The notes under the pieces are model-generated. The model made no database searches and had not been told where the DNA came from. It was given only the letters and a program-made list of their open reading frames with translations. From IMG/VR virus record IMGVR_UViG_2724679542_000011: 8,638 nucleotides of DNA. One strand, written 5' to 3'. How positions within the stretch are numbered: the first letter of the stretch is position 1; each line of letters starts with the position of its first letter. The stretch is from a virus (Duplodnaviria > Heunggongvirae > Uroviricota > Caudoviricetes). Of this stretch, positions 816 through 8,638 are shown in pieces. The position numbers and the translations under genes were made by a program.

Positions 816-2084
816 TCACTCGCCATTACCCCGATTGATCTTCGCATAGTCAAACGGCGTAATCCCCTTCTCCCGGTTCGCATCCAGAAAATCAGCCCAC
901 CACTGCAACATCAGCTTGCGCTCATCCAGATGTTCCGCTTTATGGATATACGCCGCCCTCACCGAATTGCGTTCCATATGGCTCATCTGCCTTTCCACCG
1001 CATCCTTCGACCATAACCCTGACTCAATCAATGAGCTACAGGCCATAGTGCGGAAGCCGTGGCCGCAAACCTCAACCTTGGTGTCATAGCCCATCACCCG
1101 CAATGCACTGTTCACCGTGTTTTCACTCATGGGCTTACTCGGATCGTGATCGCCAATAAAAATCAGCTCATGTTCGCCACAGAACTGTTTTATCTGCTTC
1201 AGGATCGCTAGCGCCTGCTTTGAAAGCGGCACCAGATGAGGTGTACGCATCTTTGCTCCTCGCTGAGAATGTTTCACACCGGGAATAGGTTCTCGCTCAG
1301 GCGGGATGGTCCACATTGACGTTTCAAAATCGATTTCTGACCAGCGAGCAAAACGCAGCTCACTGGATCGAATAAAAATAAGCAGGGTAAGTTCGGTTGC
1401 CCAGCGGGTTAGTAGCCTGCCGGTGTATTCATCGATTTTCTGGAGTAATTCCGGGATACGCTTTAACTCCAGCGCCGGACGATGCTGTCGATTACTGGAA
1501 GCTACCGCCCCCGCCATCTCTTGCGCCGGATTGTAATCAATTAACCCGCTTTGCACTGCATAACGCATGATGGCCGTGGTGCGCTGTTGAAGGCGGGAAG
1601 CCACTTCAAGACGTCCGGATTTCTCCACGGCTTTAATAGGAATTAACAGATCGCGGGTGCCCAGTTCAGCAATATTGTGGGAACCAATTGCCGGGAAGAT
1701 ATTGTCCTCCAGGCTCTTTTTTACACGATTAGCATGCTCTTCCGACCATTTTTGGTTGGTTACGAGCCACTCTCTGGCAACCTTCTCGAAAGTAATAATC
1801 TCTTTCGCCTGCTCTTCTTTCACAGCACGCTTATGCTCACGAGGATCGATACCAGCAGCTACCAGCTTTCTGGCCTCTTCCCTTTTCTTCCGCGCATCCG
1901 CCAGCGAAACATCCGGGTAAACGCCGAACGCCATCAAATGTTGTTTACCGCCAAAACGGAAACGAAATCGCCAATACTTTGAACCGCCAGGTTTTACAAG
2001 TAAGGACATGCCGTCGCCGTCAACAAGTGAATACTCTTTCTCCTCAGGTTTCGCAGAGCGAACTTTAGTATCCGTTAGGGCCAT
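816..2084 (-). CDS. int: P4-type tyrosine recombinase/integrase (422 aa from ATG at 2082-2084)
   Basis: Seen: N-terminal arm-binding-like region (KYWRFRFRFGGKQHLMAFGVYP), C-terminal catalytic motifs HGFRT and RAAYIH (His-x-x-Arg and catalytic Tyr). The ORF track begins at an upstream GTG (2162), but the conserved N-terminus MALTDTKVRSAKP starts at the ATG 26 codons in. Confidence 0.9.
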   Translation of the reverse strand: MALTDTKVRSAKPEEKEYSLVDGDGMSLLVKPGGSKYWRFRFRFGGKQHLMAFGVYPDVSLADARKKREEARKLVAAGIDPREHKRAVKEEQAKEIITFEKVAREWLVTNQKWSEEHANRVKKSLEDNIFPAIGSHNIAELGTRDLLIPIKAVEKSGRLEVASRLQQRTTAIMRYAVQSGLIDYNPAQEMAGAVASSNRQHRPALELKRIPELLQKIDEYTGRLLTRWATELTLLIFIRSSELRFARWSEIDFETSMWTIPPEREPIPGVKHSQRGAKMRTPHLVPLSKQALAILKQIKQFCGEHELIFIGDHDPSKPMSENTVNSALRVMGYDTKVEVCGHGFRTMACSSLIESGLWSKDAVERQMSHMERNSVRAAYIHKAEHLDERKLMLQWWADFLDANREKGITPFDYAKINRGNGE

Positions 2085-2247
2085 AATGGTCTTCCTTCCA
2101 TTGGTATCTCGTGAGTATACAAGCAATATCGAATCGGCAAATATACTCATTAGTATACTCACAAGCCTGTTGATGTGGGTTGAGTCAGGTTGACTTCAGT
2201 TGAGGGGAAAAGCTGGAAAAGCCTTGTGTAGCGCGGATTTCAGGCAT

Positions 2248-2270
2248 AAAAAAAGACCTCAGTTGAGGTC
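2248..2270 (-). terminator. Intrinsic terminator (minus strand): 6-bp stem GACCTC/GAGGTC, 4-nt loop, followed by a run of 7 U
   Basis: Seen: plus-strand AAAAAAAGACCTCAGTTGAGGTC; on the minus strand it reads hairpin then TTTTTTT. It lies about 14 nt downstream of the tRNA-like att core in the same orientation. Confidence 0.5.
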
Positions 2271-2282
2271 TATTTACATACT

Positions 2283-2306
2283 TTTGGTGCGAAGGCCGGA
2301 CTCAAA
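2283..2306 (-). other. attP core: about 20 nt identical or near-identical to the 3' end of a tRNA-Leu gene (T-arm 3' half, acceptor 3' strand, CCA)
   Basis: Seen: minus strand reads TTTGAGTCCGGCCTTCGCACCAAA. Established knowledge (from memory): the E. coli leuX 3' end is ...GGTTCGAGTCCGGCCTTCGGCACCA and P4 integrates there via a short core. No complete tRNA is present, since the upstream sequence is AT-rich and non-tRNA-like. Confidence 0.6.
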
Positions 2307-2449
2307 TATCAAAATAAGTTAATGATAAAAAACAAATAATAAAACACAACAATGAAATATGCCCCCTTTTGTGCCCCCACTGTTTTTCTGACCAATCTAT
2401 TTTCAGCCCATCAATAAATCGGAAAGTTAAATAATTTTTAATCAGTAAG

Positions 2450-2475
2450 TTTGGATCCGTAGCCCGGATCCAAAC
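2450..2475. repeat. Near-perfect 10-bp inverted repeat TTTGGATCCG ... CGGATCCAAA with a 5-nt spacer, between attP and crr
   Basis: Seen directly. Function unknown. Confidence 0.4.
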
Positions 2476-2519
2476 CAGTGCATCTTTTATCCACATAAAA
2501 AATTTTTTTTCGAAAGAAC

Positions 2520-2611
2520 TGTTCACACTGTTCACCTTTCATTTTTCTCTTTTAATTTCAGTGTGATAACGGGTGAATATACGGTGAAGGGTGAACAGTG
2601 GATTGTTCACC
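2520..2611. repeat. crr-like iteron cluster: at least 6 copies of the octamer TGTTCACC (or its complement GGTGAACA, some 6-7 of 8 matches) in both orientations
   Basis: Seen: TGTTCACA 2520-2527, TGTTCACC 2529-2536, GGTGAATA 2572-2579, GGTGAAGG 2583-2590, GGTGAACA 2590-2597, TGTTCACC 2604-2611. Established knowledge: P4 alpha binds type-I iterons TGTTCACC at ori and crr. Confidence 0.7.
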
Positions 2612-2629
2612 TTCGGGGGAGGTCGGGAT

Positions 2630-2654
2630 AAAAAAAGACCGGCAGATGCCGGTC
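2630..2654 (-). terminator. Intrinsic terminator of the alpha/left operon (minus strand): 7-bp stem GACCGGC/GCCGGTC, 4-nt loop, run of 7 U
   Basis: Seen: plus strand AAAAAAAGACCGGCAGATGCCGGTC beginning 8 nt after the alpha stop (2662-2664). Confidence 0.55.
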
Positions 2655-2661
2655 AGGTGGG

Positions 2662-4995
2662 TCAGGTTGTTGCAGGGTCGTCACATTTTGGCAGCCAGTC
2701 GCCGTAGCTTTCCTCTTTCAGTGTCAGGTTGGTCTGTATCCCCTGTTTGGTATGGCGCTTCTCGTAATTCAGTCCGTATTCCTTCAGCATCACCGGCAGC
2801 CCCAGCCCGAACATTTTCAGACTGAGTACATTCCGGTAGCCGTTTGCCTCCATGTAGGCCAGATAGGCGTGATAGAGGTATTTACGGTAATTACGCGGGA
2901 TGATACTGGCGTTCCCCATATACATGCCGCTGGTCTGCGGCAGGGTTTCCAGATAGCCGATAAAATCAAACGTCGGGTCGGCATCCCGTTTGATGTTCAG
3001 CGCCTCGTCTGAGTTCTGCTGGGACTGAAGCAGTGACCGGGCGAGCATCGGGTCGCTGAACTTCTGCATCAGGTGACGCACGATGACCGCCAGCTCGCGG
3101 GTGATTTTGTCCTTAAGCTGCGGGTCGCGCTCCTGCGGGGCTATCTGTTCCGGGAAGTGAATAATCACCCGCCGGCGTGACACGCCGCCGCTGCGGTCGG
3201 TGAAGCGCATCGGGTTATTGTTCACGGCCAGAATCACCGCCGGGATATGCGTGGAGTACGCATCCCGGTATTTCGGGTCCACGGACACCGCATCGCCGCC
3301 GGTGATGGCCTTGAGTCCGGCACCGTCGCCGCTCCATTTTTCCTGGTCCGGCAGGCGTATCAGTGAGAAGCCAGTTAACGCGGCACGTTCACGCGGGGAT
3401 TCCAGCGTCTCAATGGTGGCCGACGTGGCGTTATCCTCCCCGGCCAGCAGGGTGGCGATTTCGGCCATGATACTTTTGCCGCTGCCGCCGGGACCGGTCA
3501 CCTCCAGAAAGAGCTGCCAGTCGTAGCGGTTTGCCAGCACCATAAACAGTGCGGCCAGAATCACGTCGCGTTTTTCCGCACGGCCACCGGCGGCACGGTC
3601 AAGCCAGCGCCAGAACGCGGGGGCGTGGGTTTCCAGCGTTTCCCCTTCCACCGGTGGGGTGAAATCCACATCGCACAGGGTACGCATCCAGTGTGACGGA
3701 CTGTGCGGGTGGAACGTGCCGTTCTGTGTGTCGAGCACACCGTTACGAAAGCCAATCAGGCGGCGGGAGGGGGCTTCCTGCTGCGGAATAATCAGCTTCA
3801 GGGTGTCCACCACGGAGGCCACCTTCCCGGAGGAGAACGGCGCGCGCAGACGCTGAAACAGCCCGGCCACATCCCGGGCAAAGTCCAGTGGCGGCAGCAC
3901 CTTCCAGACACCATTTTCATAGCGGGACAGAAGCTGGCCGTTGGCATCGACCGCGAGCGCCTCGCCGTAATGCTCATAGATACGCATGGCCTTTTCGCTG
4001 GTACTCATGGCGGAAAACTCTGCTTCGCTCATGGTGTCGAACGGGCTTTCAGCCGGTGGCCGGATGGCATCGTAAATGGCCTTACGGGTGACCTCCCCGC
4101 CGTACTGCGTGAAGGCATCATTCCAGTCACCGAAGACCGGCGGCAGGGCAACAACACCTTCACACGCATCTGCGGCTGCGGCGGCTTTTTTCTGGCCGTC
4201 ACCGCTGAGGTCACGGTCTGCGGCAAGGACAATCTGACAGGCCGGATGCTTCTGCCGGGCAAGGCTGGCCAGAGAAAGGAGGTTCACGGAAGAAAGCGCC
4301 ACCATCACCGTTTCACCGGTCAGGTGATGTACGGTAAGTGCGGTCGCGTATCCCTCCGCTATCCACAGACGTTTTCCGGCCTGATTCTGTCCTTCAAGGG
4401 TGTGACAGGTGCCCCTGACCTGTCCGCCTTTCAGGGTGCGCTTACGGCCGTCAGCACTGATTAACTGAAGGTTAACCAGTTCGCCGCTGTCGTCATACAG
4501 TGGCACCACAAGGTCACCGGCGCGCCAGCTCACGCCACCGGCTCTGTGTGTGCCGGTCAGCATCCGGCATTCCCGGCCGGGAAAGCCCTTGCGGGTCAGG
4601 TAGGCGTTACCGGTTCCGGGACGGGTTTTTGCCATCAGGGTTTGTGCCAGTGCGGCGGCGTTCTTCCGGGCAGCGTCTGTTTCAGCAACGGCGGCGGCCG
4701 TCACTGCCGGGTCAGCCGGGGGCAGACTGCCGGTCACGGCAGCCACCTTTGCGGCCACGTCGGACGGGGAGACACCAAACACCTTTTCAACCAGTTTCAG
4801 GCCGTCACCGGCACCACACTGATTGCAGTACCAGGTGCCGCGCCCCTCCCTGTCATCAAAACGGAAGCGGTCACTCCCGCCACAGACCGGACAGGGCTGA
4901 TGATGGTTCTTCAGCACCTGAATCCCCAGCGCCGGGAGAATACGCGGCCAGTGGCCGAGCGCATGGCTGACGGTGGCGGTTACGTTCATTTTCAT
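2662..4995 (-). CDS. alpha: Alpha-type bifunctional primase-helicase (777 aa)
   Basis: Seen: N-terminal zinc-binding CPVCGG...YCNQCG, primase/Toprim-like acidic motifs (LAADRDLSGDG), Walker A GPGGSGKS of a D5/SF3-type helicase. AAGGAG Shine-Dalgarno 9 nt upstream of the ATG, overlapping the stop of the upstream gene. Confidence 0.9.
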   Translation of the reverse strand: MKMNVTATVSHALGHWPRILPALGIQVLKNHHQPCPVCGGSDRFRFDDREGRGTWYCNQCGAGDGLKLVEKVFGVSPSDVAAKVAAVTGSLPPADPAVTAAAVAETDAARKNAAALAQTLMAKTRPGTGNAYLTRKGFPGRECRMLTGTHRAGGVSWRAGDLVVPLYDDSGELVNLQLISADGRKRTLKGGQVRGTCHTLEGQNQAGKRLWIAEGYATALTVHHLTGETVMVALSSVNLLSLASLARQKHPACQIVLAADRDLSGDGQKKAAAAADACEGVVALPPVFGDWNDAFTQYGGEVTRKAIYDAIRPPAESPFDTMSEAEFSAMSTSEKAMRIYEHYGEALAVDANGQLLSRYENGVWKVLPPLDFARDVAGLFQRLRAPFSSGKVASVVDTLKLIIPQQEAPSRRLIGFRNGVLDTQNGTFHPHSPSHWMRTLCDVDFTPPVEGETLETHAPAFWRWLDRAAGGRAEKRDVILAALFMVLANRYDWQLFLEVTGPGGSGKSIMAEIATLLAGEDNATSATIETLESPRERAALTGFSLIRLPDQEKWSGDGAGLKAITGGDAVSVDPKYRDAYSTHIPAVILAVNNNPMRFTDRSGGVSRRRVIIHFPEQIAPQERDPQLKDKITRELAVIVRHLMQKFSDPMLARSLLQSQQNSDEALNIKRDADPTFDFIGYLETLPQTSGMYMGNASIIPRNYRKYLYHAYLAYMEANGYRNVLSLKMFGLGLPVMLKEYGLNYEKRHTKQGIQTNLTLKEESYGDWLPKCDDPATT

Positions 4996-5009
4996 GGTGT
5001 TGTTCTCCT

Positions 5010-5330
5010 TCAGTGCAGTACCGGCGCTTTTATGTGACGGGCACAGAGTTCATCCATCACAACCAGCCCGAGAAAGGACAGCGACGGTGCGGCCTTCAGG
5101 GGGCCGGATTCCATTAAATCTTCCAGCAGGGCACAGGCTATCTGACGCCCTTTTTCCTCACCGTGCTGGCGCAGATAAAAGCCTTCCAGCTCAGCGGCGA
5201 TGGCCGCCTCCAGTGACTCAAGGGTGAGATGCGGGTAGCGGTGCTGACGTTCGCACACGGTCAGCCAGGCACAGGCGACAGCACGACGGTAAAGGGCTGC
5301 GCGTAAGACGGGCGGTAAGGGTGTTTTCAT
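5010..5330 (-). CDS. Left-operon small protein, 106 aa (P4 orf106-like by size and position); function unknown
   Basis: Seen: ATG with GGAGG Shine-Dalgarno 7 nt upstream; stop overlaps the alpha Shine-Dalgarno (translational coupling). No family recognised from sequence. Confidence 0.7.
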
Positions 5331-5465
5331 TTGCTTTCCTCCCTGTGACAGATGACTGCATTCCGTGCCGGTTGCATTAACTGATAAGGCATATCTGCGT
5401 CTCCTGAAGACGTGCGTATCCCTGCGCGAATACGCACATTTAATTTTTCGGGTGTCGTTTTTTAA

Positions 5466-5921
5466 TTACAGATAATTGCGGTAACTGTTATCCGGGGTGA
5501 TTTCCGGGTCAGGCTCCGTGCGGGGAATTTCCCGCCATTCCCGCGCTACCGGTGCTGCCCGGCTGACCGGAACAGTGTCCTGCGGGTAAATATCCTGATA
5601 TTTCTCCCGCCATTTCTGTAATTCCGGGTCTCCGGCCATTTCTTTCAGTACCGCATGCCGGTTTACGGGGCTGCGTTTAAACAGGTCAGGACGGTCACAG
5701 GTAAATTCCCGCAGAAAACGCCCCAGCGGGATGTCTGTGGTGCGCCCGTCGGCGAGGATACGCACAAGGATACTGAATTTACGGCGGTACGGGTTCCAGA
5801 CAATGTCCGGGCAGCGGTACGGCATTTCCCACGGAATACCGTCTTCCAGAATGCCGACCACGGCCACATCGGGAAAACCGGCAGAACGGTAAATCTCACC
5901 GGGCTGGGGAAAATCAAACAT
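5466..5921 (-). CDS. Left-operon protein, 151 aa (P4 orf151-like by size and position); function unknown
   Basis: Seen: ATG at 5919-5921 with GGGGAGA Shine-Dalgarno 8 nt upstream; start overlaps the stop of the upstream 95-aa gene (ATGTTTGA). Confidence 0.7.
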   Translation of the reverse strand: MFDFPQPGEIYRSAGFPDVAVVGILEDGIPWEMPYRCPDIVWNPYRRKFSILVRILADGRTTDIPLGRFLREFTCDRPDLFKRSPVNRHAVLKEMAGDPELQKWREKYQDIYPQDTVPVSRAAPVAREWREIPRTEPDPEITPDNSYRNYL

Positions 5922-6201
5922 GCGTCCTGTCTCCCCGGTCTTTCTGCTGGGCGAGAAAATCGCGGCACAGGCCTTTGGCTTTCAGCTCATTCAGCACAAA
6001 ATCAATATCTTCATTCAGGTAGCTGAAAATATGCGGAATGTAGAGCTGATGCAGGCCGGAGAGTTCACGGTGAATCAAATCACCCCCAACAAACTGGGAT
6101 ACGGCGCTGGCGCGGTTGAGCTTATGGTAAGCCTCAATGCTGAGGTGTTCACGGGCGTCATGACGTGCTGAGACGGTCTGAGGGGCTTTTTTATTACGCA
6201 C
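5914..6201 (-). CDS. Left-operon small protein, 95 aa, GTG start (positionally equivalent to P4 epsilon; not verified by sequence)
   Basis: Seen: GTG at 6199-6201 preceded by GGAGG at a 6-nt spacing; the open frame extends upstream, but only this start has a ribosome-binding site. Overlaps the 65-aa gene by 8 nt. Confidence 0.55.
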
Positions 6202-6391
6202 GGGACACCTCCACCACCGGCAGACGGGCAGCAAGGGAGAGCACATAGTCACGGACAAGGGAACGGCGGGCACTGCGTTCATCACCGGCCACGGTGCGAA
6301 GCATACAGATACGGGGATGACGGTCTGCGCGACGGACAGCCGCAAACACAAAGACAAATTCAGGGTGTGAGGGGGTAAGGGTTGTAGCCAT
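6194..6391 (-). CDS. Small protein, 65 aa ([21 protein letters not shown]...); first well-supported translated gene after the leader; Kil/Icd-like by size and position
   Basis: Seen: ATG at 6389-6391 with AGGAGG 8 nt upstream. Established knowledge (from memory): P4 kil encodes a 65-aa product and is the first translated gene of the left operon. Sequence identity to Kil not verified. Confidence 0.55.
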
Positions 6392-6789
6392 GATGGCAGC
6401 CTCCTGTGAATAGCAAATAACGCTATCGCCGGAGTTCTCACGCTCGATGGCGATAGCCCAGACGGGGGTGAGAATACCGGCTTCACAGGATACCGGCCAG
6501 CCCGGAGGCTGCCCCGCCTGAGCTACCATTGACTCTGCGGCATAATGAGCGGACGCGGGCAGGATGCACGGAATGCCATCTGCACGACTGACCACACACC
6601 ACACCATAATCTGGCGCTCTGTGGCATTGATTGCGACACAAAAAAAGACGCGTGGCGCGTCATATGTCGCCTGTGAATTGCTCGGGTTCTCACGCCCGGC
6701 TGCCGATTTTGCGGCAGCGGAAAAACTATATCCGCAAATGCCGGAAAAAGGCAAGCCAGAAAAAGGGAGTTTTTGCAGAGCGGGCATCA
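6392..6789 (-). promoter_or_regulatory. Left-operon leader between vis and the 65-aa gene: GC-rich hairpins, an intrinsic terminator, repeated GCGTGAGAAC segments and a complementary TTCTCACC segment; candidate immunity (cI-like RNA) control region
   Basis: Seen: the structures listed (detailed in findings). Inference: analogy to P4 RNA-based immunity with seqA/seqB/seqC pairing and premature termination. Confidence 0.4.
6640..6661 (-). terminator. Intrinsic terminator inside the leader (minus strand): 6-bp stem GACGCG/CGCGTC, 3-nt loop, run of 7 U
   Basis: Seen: plus strand ACAAAAAAAGACGCGTGGCGCGTC; on the minus strand hairpin then TTTTTTT. Confidence 0.5.
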
Positions 6790-7056
6790 TCATGCGTCGT
6801 ACCCCCGTTTGCGTCCGGCAATGCGTCCGGCCATCCATGCGGTGACTTCAGAGTGCAGCCAGGCCACATTTTTACCGCCAAGACTCACCTGCGGCGGAAA
6901 TTCCCCCTTACGGATGAGTTCATAGATGGTCGAGCGTGACAGGCCGCACAGGTGCATCACTTCCGGCAGACGTAAAAAACGCTCCTGCGTGATGTCCGGC
7001 AGCGGCATCAGTGGCGTCACAGGGGCGGGAGACGGGGAAGAAAAAACAGCTTGCAT
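6790..7056 (-). CDS. alpA: AlpA/Vis-family helix-turn-helix regulator (88 aa)
   Basis: Seen: HTH segment [29 protein letters not shown] resembles the AlpA/excisionase-like fold; GAGG Shine-Dalgarno 7 nt upstream of the ATG at 7054-7056. Size matches P4 vis (orf88) as I recall it. Confidence 0.8.
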
Positions 7057-7158
7057 CAGGCTACCTCGTTAATGTCCATACAGCACCGGATAAGTCCGTC
7101 CGGCTTCGGGTAGCGCTTTATTTTGTGAATATTTTTGGCAGATGCAACAGGGGGGATT

Positions 7159-7176
7159 TGTTCCGGCAGTCTTACA
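7159..7176. promoter_or_regulatory. TGT-N12-ACA box (candidate Ogr/Delta activator site) in the divergent region, plausibly for the leftward late promoter upstream of vis
   Basis: Seen: TGTTCCGGCAGTCTTACA. Established knowledge: P2/P4 late promoters carry TGT-N12-ACA centred near -55. Orientation and target promoter are inference. Confidence 0.4.
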
Positions 7177-7334
7177 ATGGCTGTGTATTTTTTATACATC
7201 AGCGCCAGATGGCTTTAAAACGCTCTGGAAGGAGCTGGAAAAAATTATAGTGAAATACAAATTGTTTTTTCTTATTTATTTCAGTGGATTAATAAAAATA
7301 AAAAGTAATAAACAGCACAAAAAGTCTATGAGCG

Positions 7335-7428
7335 GGTGAACAGACGGTGAACAGTCATTACTGCGATTGTTCACCCTTTAACTTACTGTATTACTTATCT
7401 TTTTTCTTATGGTGAACAGAGGTGAACA
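7335..7428. repeat. ori-like iteron cluster: 5 copies of GGTGAACA/TGTTCACC (4 direct, 1 inverted) next to an AT-rich tract (7250-7320)
   Basis: Seen: GGTGAACA at 7335-7342, 7346-7353, 7411-7418, 7421-7428 and TGTTCACC at 7368-7375; 10-11 bp spacing within pairs. Same octamer as the crr cluster about 4.8 kb away. Confidence 0.7.
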
Positions 7429-7507
7429 GTAAAATATAAAAAAACAAACAGTAAGCCGGTTTTTCCTGCGACCTTTTCCTGGCTTGCCGGTCTGAGGATG
7501 AGTCTCC

Positions 7508-7525
7508 TGTGTCAGGGCTGGCACA
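7508..7525 (+). promoter_or_regulatory. TGT-N12-ACA box upstream of sid (Psid-like Delta/Ogr-dependent late promoter)
   Basis: Seen: TGTGTCAGGGCTGGCACA centred about 80 nt upstream of the sid ATG, consistent with a -55 activator site and a short 5' UTR. Confidence 0.5.
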
Positions 7526-7597
7526 TCTGCAATGCGTCGTGTTGTTGTCCGGTGTACGTCACAATTTTCTTAACCTGAAGTGACGAGGAGCCGGAAA

Positions 7598-8332
7598 ATG
7601 TCTGACAACACCATCCCTGAATATCTGCAACCCGCACTGGCACAACTGGAAAAGGCCAGAGCCGCCCACCTTGAGAACGCCCGCCTGATGGATGAGACCG
7701 TCACGGCCATTGAACGGGCAGAGCAGGAAAAAAATGCGCTGGCGCAGGCCGACGGAAATGACGCTGACGACTGGCGCACGGCCTTTCGTGCAGCCGGTGG
7801 TGTCCTGAGCGACGAGCTGAAACAGCGCCACATTGAGCGCGTGGCACGCCGGGAGCTGGTACAGGAATATGACAATCTGGCCGTGGTGCTGAATTTTGAA
7901 CGTGAACGCCTGAAAGGGGCGTGTGACAGCACGGCCACCGCCTACCGGAAGGCACATCATCACCTGCTGAGTCTGTATGCAGAGCATGAGCTGGAACACG
8001 CCCTGAATGAAACCTGTGAGGCGCTTGTCCGGGCAATGCATCTGAGTATCCTGGTACAGGAAAATCCGCTCGCCAACACCACCGGCCATCAGGGCTACGT
8101 CGCACCGGAAAAGGCTGTCATGCAGCAGGTGAAATCATCGCTGGAACAGAAAATTAAACAGATGCAAATCAGCCTCACCGGCGAGCCGGTTCTCCGGCTG
8201 ACCGGACTGTCAGCGGCAACACTCCCGCACATGGATTATGAGGTGGCAGGCACACCGGCACAGCGCAAGGTGTGGCAGGACAAAATAGACCAGCAGGGAG
8301 CAGAGCTTAAGGCCAGAGGACTGCTGTCATGA
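7598..8332 (+). CDS. sid: Sid-type capsid size determination (external scaffold) protein (244 aa)
   Basis: Seen: ATG at 7598 with GAGGAG 7 nt upstream (the track's upstream GTG start is rejected); long predicted helical, alanine/glutamate-rich protein; stop overlaps the delta start (ATGA). Position and size match P4 Sid. Confidence 0.85.
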   Translation: MSDNTIPEYLQPALAQLEKARAAHLENARLMDETVTAIERAEQEKNALAQADGNDADDWRTAFRAAGGVLSDELKQRHIERVARRELVQEYDNLAVVLNFERERLKGACDSTATAYRKAHHHLLSLYAEHELEHALNETCEALVRAMHLSILVQENPLANTTGHQGYVAPEKAVMQQVKSSLEQKIKQMQISLTGEPVLRLTGLSAATLPHMDYEVAGTPAQRKVWQDKIDQQGAELKARGLLS

Positions 8333-8616
8333 TTTACTGCCCGTCGTGTGGACATGTTGCTCACACCCGTCGCGCACATTTCATGGACGATGGCACCAAG
8401 ATAATGATTGCACAGTGCCGGAATATTTATTGCTCTGCGACATTTGAAGCGAGTGAAAGCTTTTTCTCTGACTGTAAAGATTCAGGAATGGAATACATTT
8501 CAGGCAAACAGAGATACCGCGATTCACTGACGTCAGCCTCCGGCAGTATGAAACGCCCGAAAAGAATGCTTGTTACCGGATATTGTTGTCGGAGATGTGA
8601 GGTGTACTGGCAATAG
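8329..8616 (+). CDS. delta: Ogr/Delta-family zinc-finger late transcription activator (95 aa)
   Basis: Seen: N-terminal CPSCGHVAHTRRAH...CRNIYCSATF, the C-x2-C ... C-x4-C Ogr/Delta finger; start overlaps the sid stop. Confidence 0.8.
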   Translation: MIYCPSCGHVAHTRRAHFMDDGTKIMIAQCRNIYCSATFEASESFFSDCKDSGMEYISGKQRYRDSLTSASGSMKRPKRMLVTGYCCRRCEVYWQ

Positions 8617-8638
8617 CGGACACTACCATTTGTTCTTT

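Follow-up and report, generated by a model that had tools for sequence, protein, structure and literature searches.

The window, by which we mean the whole 8,638-nt stretch of viral DNA analysed here, carries a small gene, kil, which is preceded on the minus strand by a promoter and a structured RNA leader (Table 1). The genes around the leader are those of phage P4, found in the same order and on the same strands (ORF88/vis, epsilon, ORF151, ORF106 and alpha); among them are an AlpA/Vis-like ORF88, epsilon (the derepression protein), DUF5375/ORF106 and the alpha primase. Window positions 2285-8598 are 97.6% identical to P4, and the part that surrounds the leader, 6150-7100, corresponds to P4 8124-9074 with 99.2% identity over 951 nt. 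When the leader itself (6380-6717, minus strand) is aligned to P4, as the original prediction had proposed, there are zero base differences. Judging by sequence, then, the window is a P4-type satellite prophage and its leader is the P4 immunity region. The RNA immunity module is not a new system; it is P4's own and already known. The RNA-based immunity of P4 is a textbook system that was worked out between 1992 and 2002.

Over the 391 nt aligned, the window departs from P4 at one place only, the CG/GC dinucleotide 6719-6718, which reads CG in the window and GC in the P4 GenBank records. Base 6718 is G in 71 of 73 aligned leaders (the window included) and A in two (L060 and L062), in an alignment, A2, that covers 6718 but not 6719. 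G at 6718 supplies the seventh pair of leader hairpin 1, and it would be the first base of the transcript. The P4 record of the 1980s may contain a transposition error at these two positions.

Elsewhere, the window differs from P4 by another integrase allele to the left of the attP core and by the probable end of an insertion sequence in sid. Homology to P4 starts exactly at the 20-bp attP core (window 2285-2304), and to the left of it lies a different tyrosine integrase of 448 aa (816-2162). Window positions 1989-2306 match a Salmonella tRNA-Leu flank; an ARAGORN search of the window detected no intact tRNA. The break in homology at the attP core is due either to replacement of the integrase module there or to the element being joined to an adjacent island. 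On the other side, homology to P4 stops at 8598, within sid, and the final 40 nt of the window (8599-8638, beginning with TGAGGTGTACTGGCAATAGCGGACAC) match many records of Stx phages and resemble the terminus of an IS3-family element; sid is therefore probably interrupted by an insertion sequence.

Table 1. Features of the immunity leader and adjoining reading frames, with positions in the window
Feature	Position	Strand	Description	Evidence
PLE promoter	6725..6754	minus	-35 TTGCCT 6754-6749, 18-nt spacer, -10 TATAGT 6730-6725	promoter scan
eta ORF	6194..6793	minus	199 codons, in frame with kil, covers the entire RNA leader	
Short leader RNA (isrK family / P4 seqA element)	6640..6718	minus		Rfam isrK and c4-a1b1, fold
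Leader hairpin 1	6718-6699	minus	7 bp, GCUGCCG/CGGCAGC, CAAAAUC loop	
Leader hairpin 2	6698-6683	minus	4 bp, loop carries GUGAGAA; single-stranded stretch 3' of the hairpin	
Upstream target a1 (core of seqA)	6687..6693	minus	GUGAGAA in the loop of leader hairpin 2; full 10-mer GCGTGAGAAC 6695-6686	
Upstream target b1	6670..6677	minus	UUCACAGG, complement of b' in CI hairpin 2	
Intrinsic terminator	6640..6661	minus	stem-loop GACGCG-CCA-CGCGTC 6661-6647 and U7 6646-6640	terminator scan, fold, conservation
CI RNA (C4 antisense RNA family)	6446..6533	minus		Rfam C4, fold, comparative pairing
b' specificity loop of CI	6482..6490	minus	UCCUGUGAA, loop of CI hairpin 2; core CCUGUGAA 6489-6482	
a' specificity bulge of CI	6468..6474	minus	UUCUCAC, core of seqB, single-stranded between CI hairpin 2 and closing stem	
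9-bp stem	6422..6457	minus	GCUAUCGCC (GCTATCGCC) 6457-6449 with GGCGAUAGC (GGCGATAGC) 6430-6422; a2 in the 18-nt loop	
Downstream target a2 (core of seqC)	6435..6441	minus	GUGAGAA; full 10-mer (GCGTGAGAAC; GCGUGAGAAC) 6443-6434	
Downstream target b2	6402..6410	minus	UUCACAGGA, i.e. the second UUCACAGG (6410-6403) plus A6402	
kil	6194..6391	minus	65 aa, ATG 6391	NCBIfam NF033153

The short leader and the CI RNA

PLE is a sigma-70 promoter, and its -10 element is also annotated in the P4 record X02534. We infer that transcription starts near G6718, the same position at which the isrK model begins. Directly 3' of the promoter, the leader has the architecture of isrK RNAs, with two hairpins at the 5' end and an intrinsic terminator behind them. 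The GC-rich hairpin of the original prediction lies exactly where it had been placed, and the strong hairpin with its U7 tail was recovered at the predicted position by the terminator scan as well. This U7 terminator we take to be, most likely, the t1 of Briani et al. (2000), the CI-dependent terminator of P4. Next to it, a helix between 6670-6665 and 6638-6633 is paired in 84% of cases, with little covariation.

Three Rfam families match the leader. Its first part belongs to isrK (RF01394; 69.7 bits against a gathering threshold of 50, model positions 1-77 of 77, window 6718-6641, minus strand) and, by a small margin, to c4-a1b1 (RF03163; 49.5 bits against 46.7, window 6731-6679, minus strand). 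Farther downstream, an 88-nt segment corresponding to P4 8420-8507 matches the C4 antisense RNA (RF01695; 74.9 bits against 45, model positions 1-87 of 87). In P4-like prophages, the isrK and C4 homologues are the seqA element and the CI RNA, respectively, of the P4 literature (PMC3632133; PMC4825925; PMC10111431). The original prediction had located the cI RNA within this leader and given no boundaries for it; these can now be set at 6533-6446.

The fold of CI is that of the C4 type, with a long closing stem (16 bp, 6527-6512 with 6467-6452) that holds together two hairpins, hairpin 1 (6511-6498) and hairpin 2 (6497-6476), and leaves a single-stranded bulge 3' of the second one. RNA folding, one of the checks proposed at the outset, gives CI a free energy of -49.3 kcal/mol and a z score of -5.2; none of 200 shuffled sequences is as stable, and the minimum-energy fold is the same as the centroid. 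The 339-nt leader as a whole has a z score of -4.35. Like other members of the C4 family, CI is placed within the leader of a repressed operon, 5' of an icd/kil-type gene with a targeted ribosome-binding site.

To compare the leader with its relatives, we collected 80 loci around homologues of the alpha primase (57%-99% protein identity), taking one genome per species, with hosts ranging from Enterobacter to Yersinia, Serratia, Pectobacterium and Pantoea. An isrK element followed by C4 was found by Rfam in all 13 diverse loci, and nhmmer detected both elements, in the same order, in 75 of the 80; covariation was counted on the 73 sequences of alignment A2, one of which is the window. Across these 73 relatives, CI helices are 99.8-100% paired, with compensatory changes that affect chiefly hairpin 1 (4/5 pairs) and some stretches of the closing stem, and the helices of the short leader are 96-100% paired. 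All cis helices together (two leader hairpins, terminator and three CI helices) are 99.4% paired. Taken one at a time, the leader hairpins (z -1.8, weaker than the CI fold) and the 9-bp hairpin downstream of a' (z -2.4) have weak z scores, and it is the comparative data that support them instead.

The spacer between the terminator and CI (window 6534-6639) is 107 nt long solely in the lineage of P4 (the window, L004, L014, L022, L038 and L042); it is 98 nt in L003 and 59-68 nt in the remaining P4-like elements, so that the excess of the P4 lineage is about 45 nt.

Pairing of CI with four target sites

Two segments of CI, the bulge a' and the loop b', are exposed in the fold, and each is complementary to one site upstream and another site downstream of CI in the same leader. 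The first set, a, involves a repeat that the original prediction had picked up. In the whole window there are exactly two copies of the 10-mer GCGTGAGAAC, against an expectation of 0.01, and none of 200 shuffles reaches two. Its copies had been predicted at about 6682-6691, which is 4 nt off the actual location of the first one, and at 6435-6444, again slightly displaced; likewise, the TTCTCAC segment assigned to about 6468-6476 is present as TTCTCACC at 6474-6467 (minus strand). The proposal that both GTGAGAA copies can pair with TTCTCAC is borne out in the relatives: in a fixed register, a' forms 7/7 Watson-Crick pairs with a1 in 63 of 64 loci, and with a2 in all 64 (100% paired), and in either case double changes are seen at six of the seven pairs. 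Non-cognate a' pairings average 3.2/7. There are six types of the a' core (ACGCCAA, TTCCTAC, TTTCCAC, CTGCAAA, TTCTCAC and CTGCTAA). Modelled local duplexes have energies of -15.3 kcal/mol with a1 and -9.2 kcal/mol with a2.

The second set, b, was missed by the original prediction. ATTCACAGG is found in two copies in the window, where 0.04 are expected. Target b1 is 99.0% paired with b', matching it at 8/8 positions in 47 loci and at 7/8 in another 16, with double changes at six of the eight pairs, and about 15 types of b' can be distinguished among the loci. Of 64 loci, 50 carry the exact b2 8-mer, which in 48 of these 50 ends 11 nt 5' of the ATG; the 14 loci that do not have it mostly substitute a G-U wobble at one end. 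In the window, b2 covers four (A6405-A6402) of the six bases of the kil Shine-Dalgarno sequence, AGGAGG (6405-6400), which provides a direct structural reason for the block of kil translation. The modelled duplexes are -11.8 kcal/mol for b1 and -14.0 kcal/mol for b2. Between a2 and b2 there is a small hairpin (6426-6410) that is 74.8% paired, in a region where the alignment has register shifts.

Taken together, CI and its upstream targets are 99.4% paired, with 12 of 15 pairs changed on both sides, against 36-49% in slid controls; for the downstream targets, the figures are 98.4%, 12 of 16 pairs, and 35-47%. Hence the covariance analysis across P4-like elements that the original prediction had called for comes out clearly in its favour (98-99% paired versus 35-49% for slid controls), and there is strong evidence that CI loops and their targets change together across diverged leaders. 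By their positions and by secondary sources, a1/b1, a'/b' and a2/b2 would correspond to the published extents of seqA, seqB and seqC, respectively, and the U7 terminator to t1.

In one locus, L054, and only there, neither a1 nor b1 matches the element's own CI. Positions 1-118 of L054 are identical to positions 1-118 of L053, from the same genome, and both loci are at contig ends; the mismatch is probably an artefact of assembly and not a natural hybrid.

The two specificity segments appear in many combinations. At least six types of a' and about 15 types of b' form 43 combinations among 75 elements, and elements that reside in one genome (L007/L018/L032, L012/L045, L060/L062, L024/L025, L028/L029, L010/L038 and L065/L069) never share both a' and b'. 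Such a distribution would fit heteroimmunity.

The 9-bp stem named in the original prediction is real and conserved, with 98.9% pairing in the 73 relatives and double changes at three pairs; one of its arms had been placed 1 nt away from its actual position (6457-6449). Nor is it independent of CI: its 5' arm consists of 3 nt and the 3' strand of the base of the CI stem, so that the 9-bp stem can form only in place of the lowest 6 bp of CI. For a modelled precursor (6533-6415), the state with the full CI stem has -57.0 kcal/mol and the state with the 9-bp stem -56.4 kcal/mol, a gap of 0.6. In this model, formation of the 9-bp stem would disrupt the stem that is presumed to be recognised by RNase P. 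An atypical terminator, t4, was reportedly described downstream of cI by Briani and co-workers in 2000. The 9-bp stem and the GUUAUUU that comes after it in P4 were weighed as a candidate for t4; among relatives in alignment A2 this U-rich tail is not conserved, and we do not make that assignment. It is possible, and we put it forward tentatively, that two things seen here are undescribed: what looks like a two-part code of immunity specificity that reassorts, and a 9-bp helix that competes, at nearly equal energy, with the bottom of the CI stem and might either gate CI maturation or form an atypical terminator.

The same alternative helices invite a different reading, in which the leader is a purely cis-acting attenuator, with the repeats and TTCTCAC forming exclusive structures in one transcript and no diffusible RNA taking part. 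The original prediction had likewise spoken of mutually exclusive structures. In favour of the cis reading, the minimum-energy fold of the full leader pairs a1 with a' in cis, and the 9-bp stem and the base of the CI stem genuinely exclude each other, at the nearly equal energies given above. However, superinfection immunity needs a diffusible factor, and CI supplied from a plasmid has been reported in the P4 literature to confer immunity on infecting P4. Moreover, the terminator hairpin is part of the minimum-energy fold of the nascent leader, with a pair probability of 0.8-0.9, and no antiterminator structure rivals it, and CI is a very stable, self-contained fold whose family is processed and acts in trans (PMC5499578, PMC4825925). 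In the literature, it is the processed CI RNA, acting in trans, that does the pairing. We consider a solely cis-acting device very improbable. A riboswitch was also entertained and rejected, since no riboswitch family of Rfam matched and no competing antiterminator was found.

The kil gene and the coding frame across the leader

The 65-codon gene downstream of the leader, which the original prediction had left without the Icd-like identity, matches NF033153 with 76.1 bits against a cutoff of 25, over residues 12-59 of 65; a Pfam search of the 65-aa protein matched no family. By these sequence matches it is Kil, the Icd-like inhibitor of cell division, whose gene is translated before any other on PLE transcripts, and the identification of Kil in P4 is backed by PMC10111431.

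The kil frame extends far upstream, as the eta ORF, another feature that the original prediction had overlooked. The ATG of eta (6793-6791) overlaps the TGA stop codon (6792-6790) of the AlpA/Vis-like ORF88. In 67 of 75 relatives, no stop codon interrupts the kil frame anywhere in the leader; in seven more, which belong to the Pectobacterium/Dickeya group, it is the +1 frame that is open instead, and the third frame is closed in every locus. The frame usually starts with an ATGA, in which the start codon overlaps the end of the gene upstream. Most differences among the lengths of the spacer between terminator and CI (59, 62, 65, 68, 98 and 107 nt) are multiples of three. In P4, eta, the kil gene nested in it and the coupling to the alpA homologue have all been described, and ribosomes make eta solely on transcripts of the late promoter (PMC10111431).

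Does the leader, then, merely code for protein, the RNA features being incidental? An ORF that spans the entire leader and is conserved in relatives would be in line with this, as would existing protein annotations, namely "cI gene product" for ORF137 in the old P4 GenBank record and the Icd-like protein of PGAP. Against it, variation in the leader follows the rules of base pairing, with compensatory double changes, and not the rules of codons; the Icd-like domain is confined to the last 65 aa of the eta ORF; and the region contains three Rfam families above their thresholds. We give the protein-only interpretation next to no credence; published work has both functions side by side, with translation of eta limited to late-promoter transcripts (PMC10111431). 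A single stretch of DNA thus carries both a structured RNA module and the coding sequence of a protein, eta.

In database annotation the RNA side of this arrangement is hidden, because the labels are for proteins only. PGAP calls an ORF of the length of eta (196-199 aa) a "host cell division inhibitor Icd-like protein" in two E. coli RefSeq loci (L083, 8062-8652, and L085, 9469-10068), and in these two loci its annotation has no ncRNA for CI or for the isrK-like leader.

Proposed mechanism and relation to known systems

The explanation that accounts best for these observations, to which we assign a probability of about 0.93, is that a satellite prophage of the P4 type has its immunity region here, with a CI RNA that has two pairing segments and four targets. 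In such a region, the constitutive PLE would start a transcript near 6718, the first 79 nt of which would fold into the two hairpins and the intrinsic terminator of the isrK-family, or seqA, element. Transcripts that read through would contain CI (6533-6446), and RNase P and 3' trimming, known from the literature, would release it as a stable small RNA. CI would present a' (UUCUCAC) and b' (CCUGUGAA) as single strands, each with one complementary site upstream (a1 or b1) and one downstream (a2 or b2). Pairing upstream would enhance termination at the U7 terminator, and CI would thereby regulate its own synthesis; pairing downstream would mask the kil Shine-Dalgarno sequence, and the untranslated RNA would terminate before the replication genes, leaving the prophage immune and silent. 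On transcripts from the late promoter, ribosomes would translate eta across the leader and so override immunity, as reported for P4 (PMC10111431; PMC4825925).

Several of these steps come from published work on P4. CI RNA is derived from an untranslated leader and pairs with seqA upstream and with seqC downstream of cI, which results in premature termination (PMC4825925; PMC10111431); it acts in trans (PMC4825925; PMC5499578); and it is excised by RNase P at the 5' end and trimmed at the 3' end to a stable RNA of approximately 70-80 nt (PMC5499578, citing Forti 1995). For the window, trans action and processing of CI would follow by analogy with this literature, as covariation fits cis and trans pairing alike. 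Termination effects, and the names t1, t4 and timm, are likewise those of the P4 literature. In our own modelling, when a1 and b1 are blocked, pair probabilities in the terminator hairpin rise modestly, from 0.80-0.91 to 0.87-1.0 (also given as 0.88-0.91 to 0.97-1.0), a small effect that points toward CI-enhanced termination. The immunity logic put forward in the original prediction (a cI RNA, two repeats, termination and a block of kil) is borne out by identity to P4, by the Rfam matches to C4 and isrK, and by covariation.

The transcript from 6718 to 6640 might itself be a functional small RNA, like IsrK of Salmonella, for instance by sequestering CI in trans as a decoy or by activating the long transcript. 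In favour of this are its match to the isrK family (69.7 bits), its end in a terminator hairpin with a U-tail that is typical of Hfq-binding sRNAs, and its two CI-complementary sites. The loop of its hairpin 1, CAAAAUC, is near-invariant over all 73 relatives and has no complementarity to CI; hairpin 1 must therefore do something else, for example bind Hfq or another protein, or stabilise the transcript. In Gifsy-1, IsrK works in trans (PMC4825925), and IsrK-like elements of P4-like prophages are required in S. Typhi (PMC3632133). The secondary sources used here, however, describe P4 seqA only as a target, and we regard a trans-acting short leader as doubtful; if real, it would add to the CI-based immunity set out above and not contradict it.

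Among known systems outside P4, a close analogue is immI of phages P1 and P7, the c4 organisation of which was reportedly described by Citron and Schuster. It belongs to the same Rfam family and clan (C4 and c4-a1b1) and shares the plan of two loops and four targets (a'/b', a1/b1, a2/b2), an RNA processed from the leader of the operon that it represses, and an Icd-like first downstream gene, the ribosome-binding site of which is overlapped by a downstream target. The two differ in what is controlled: c4 of P1 acts on the antirepressor ant (icd-ant), whereas P4 CI acts on replication genes; P4 has, in addition, intrinsic termination that depends on CI and an eta ORF that overlaps the module. 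At the DNA level, the window and P1-like phages have only about 72-75% similarity over about 180 nt. The other relative is IsrK/STnc1160 of Gifsy-1. The window leader fits the full-length isrK covariance model, and in Gifsy-1, too, IsrK arises by termination of some of the transcripts, with a processed C4-like RNA located after it (PMC4825925). IsrK of Gifsy-1, however, is reported to activate in trans the translation of a downstream antiterminator pathway, a function that is only putative for the P4 leader.

As a discovery, the locus has small value, since it is the textbook system of P4 and is already represented by three Rfam families; what may be new is the reassortment of CI loops, a modest side observation, and the conserved alternative stem. 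The outcome also indicates that an RNA immunity module of this kind can be recognised by a reading of sequence alone. For P4-like satellites as a group, the antisense code of two loops and four targets could serve to predict cross-immunity between them.
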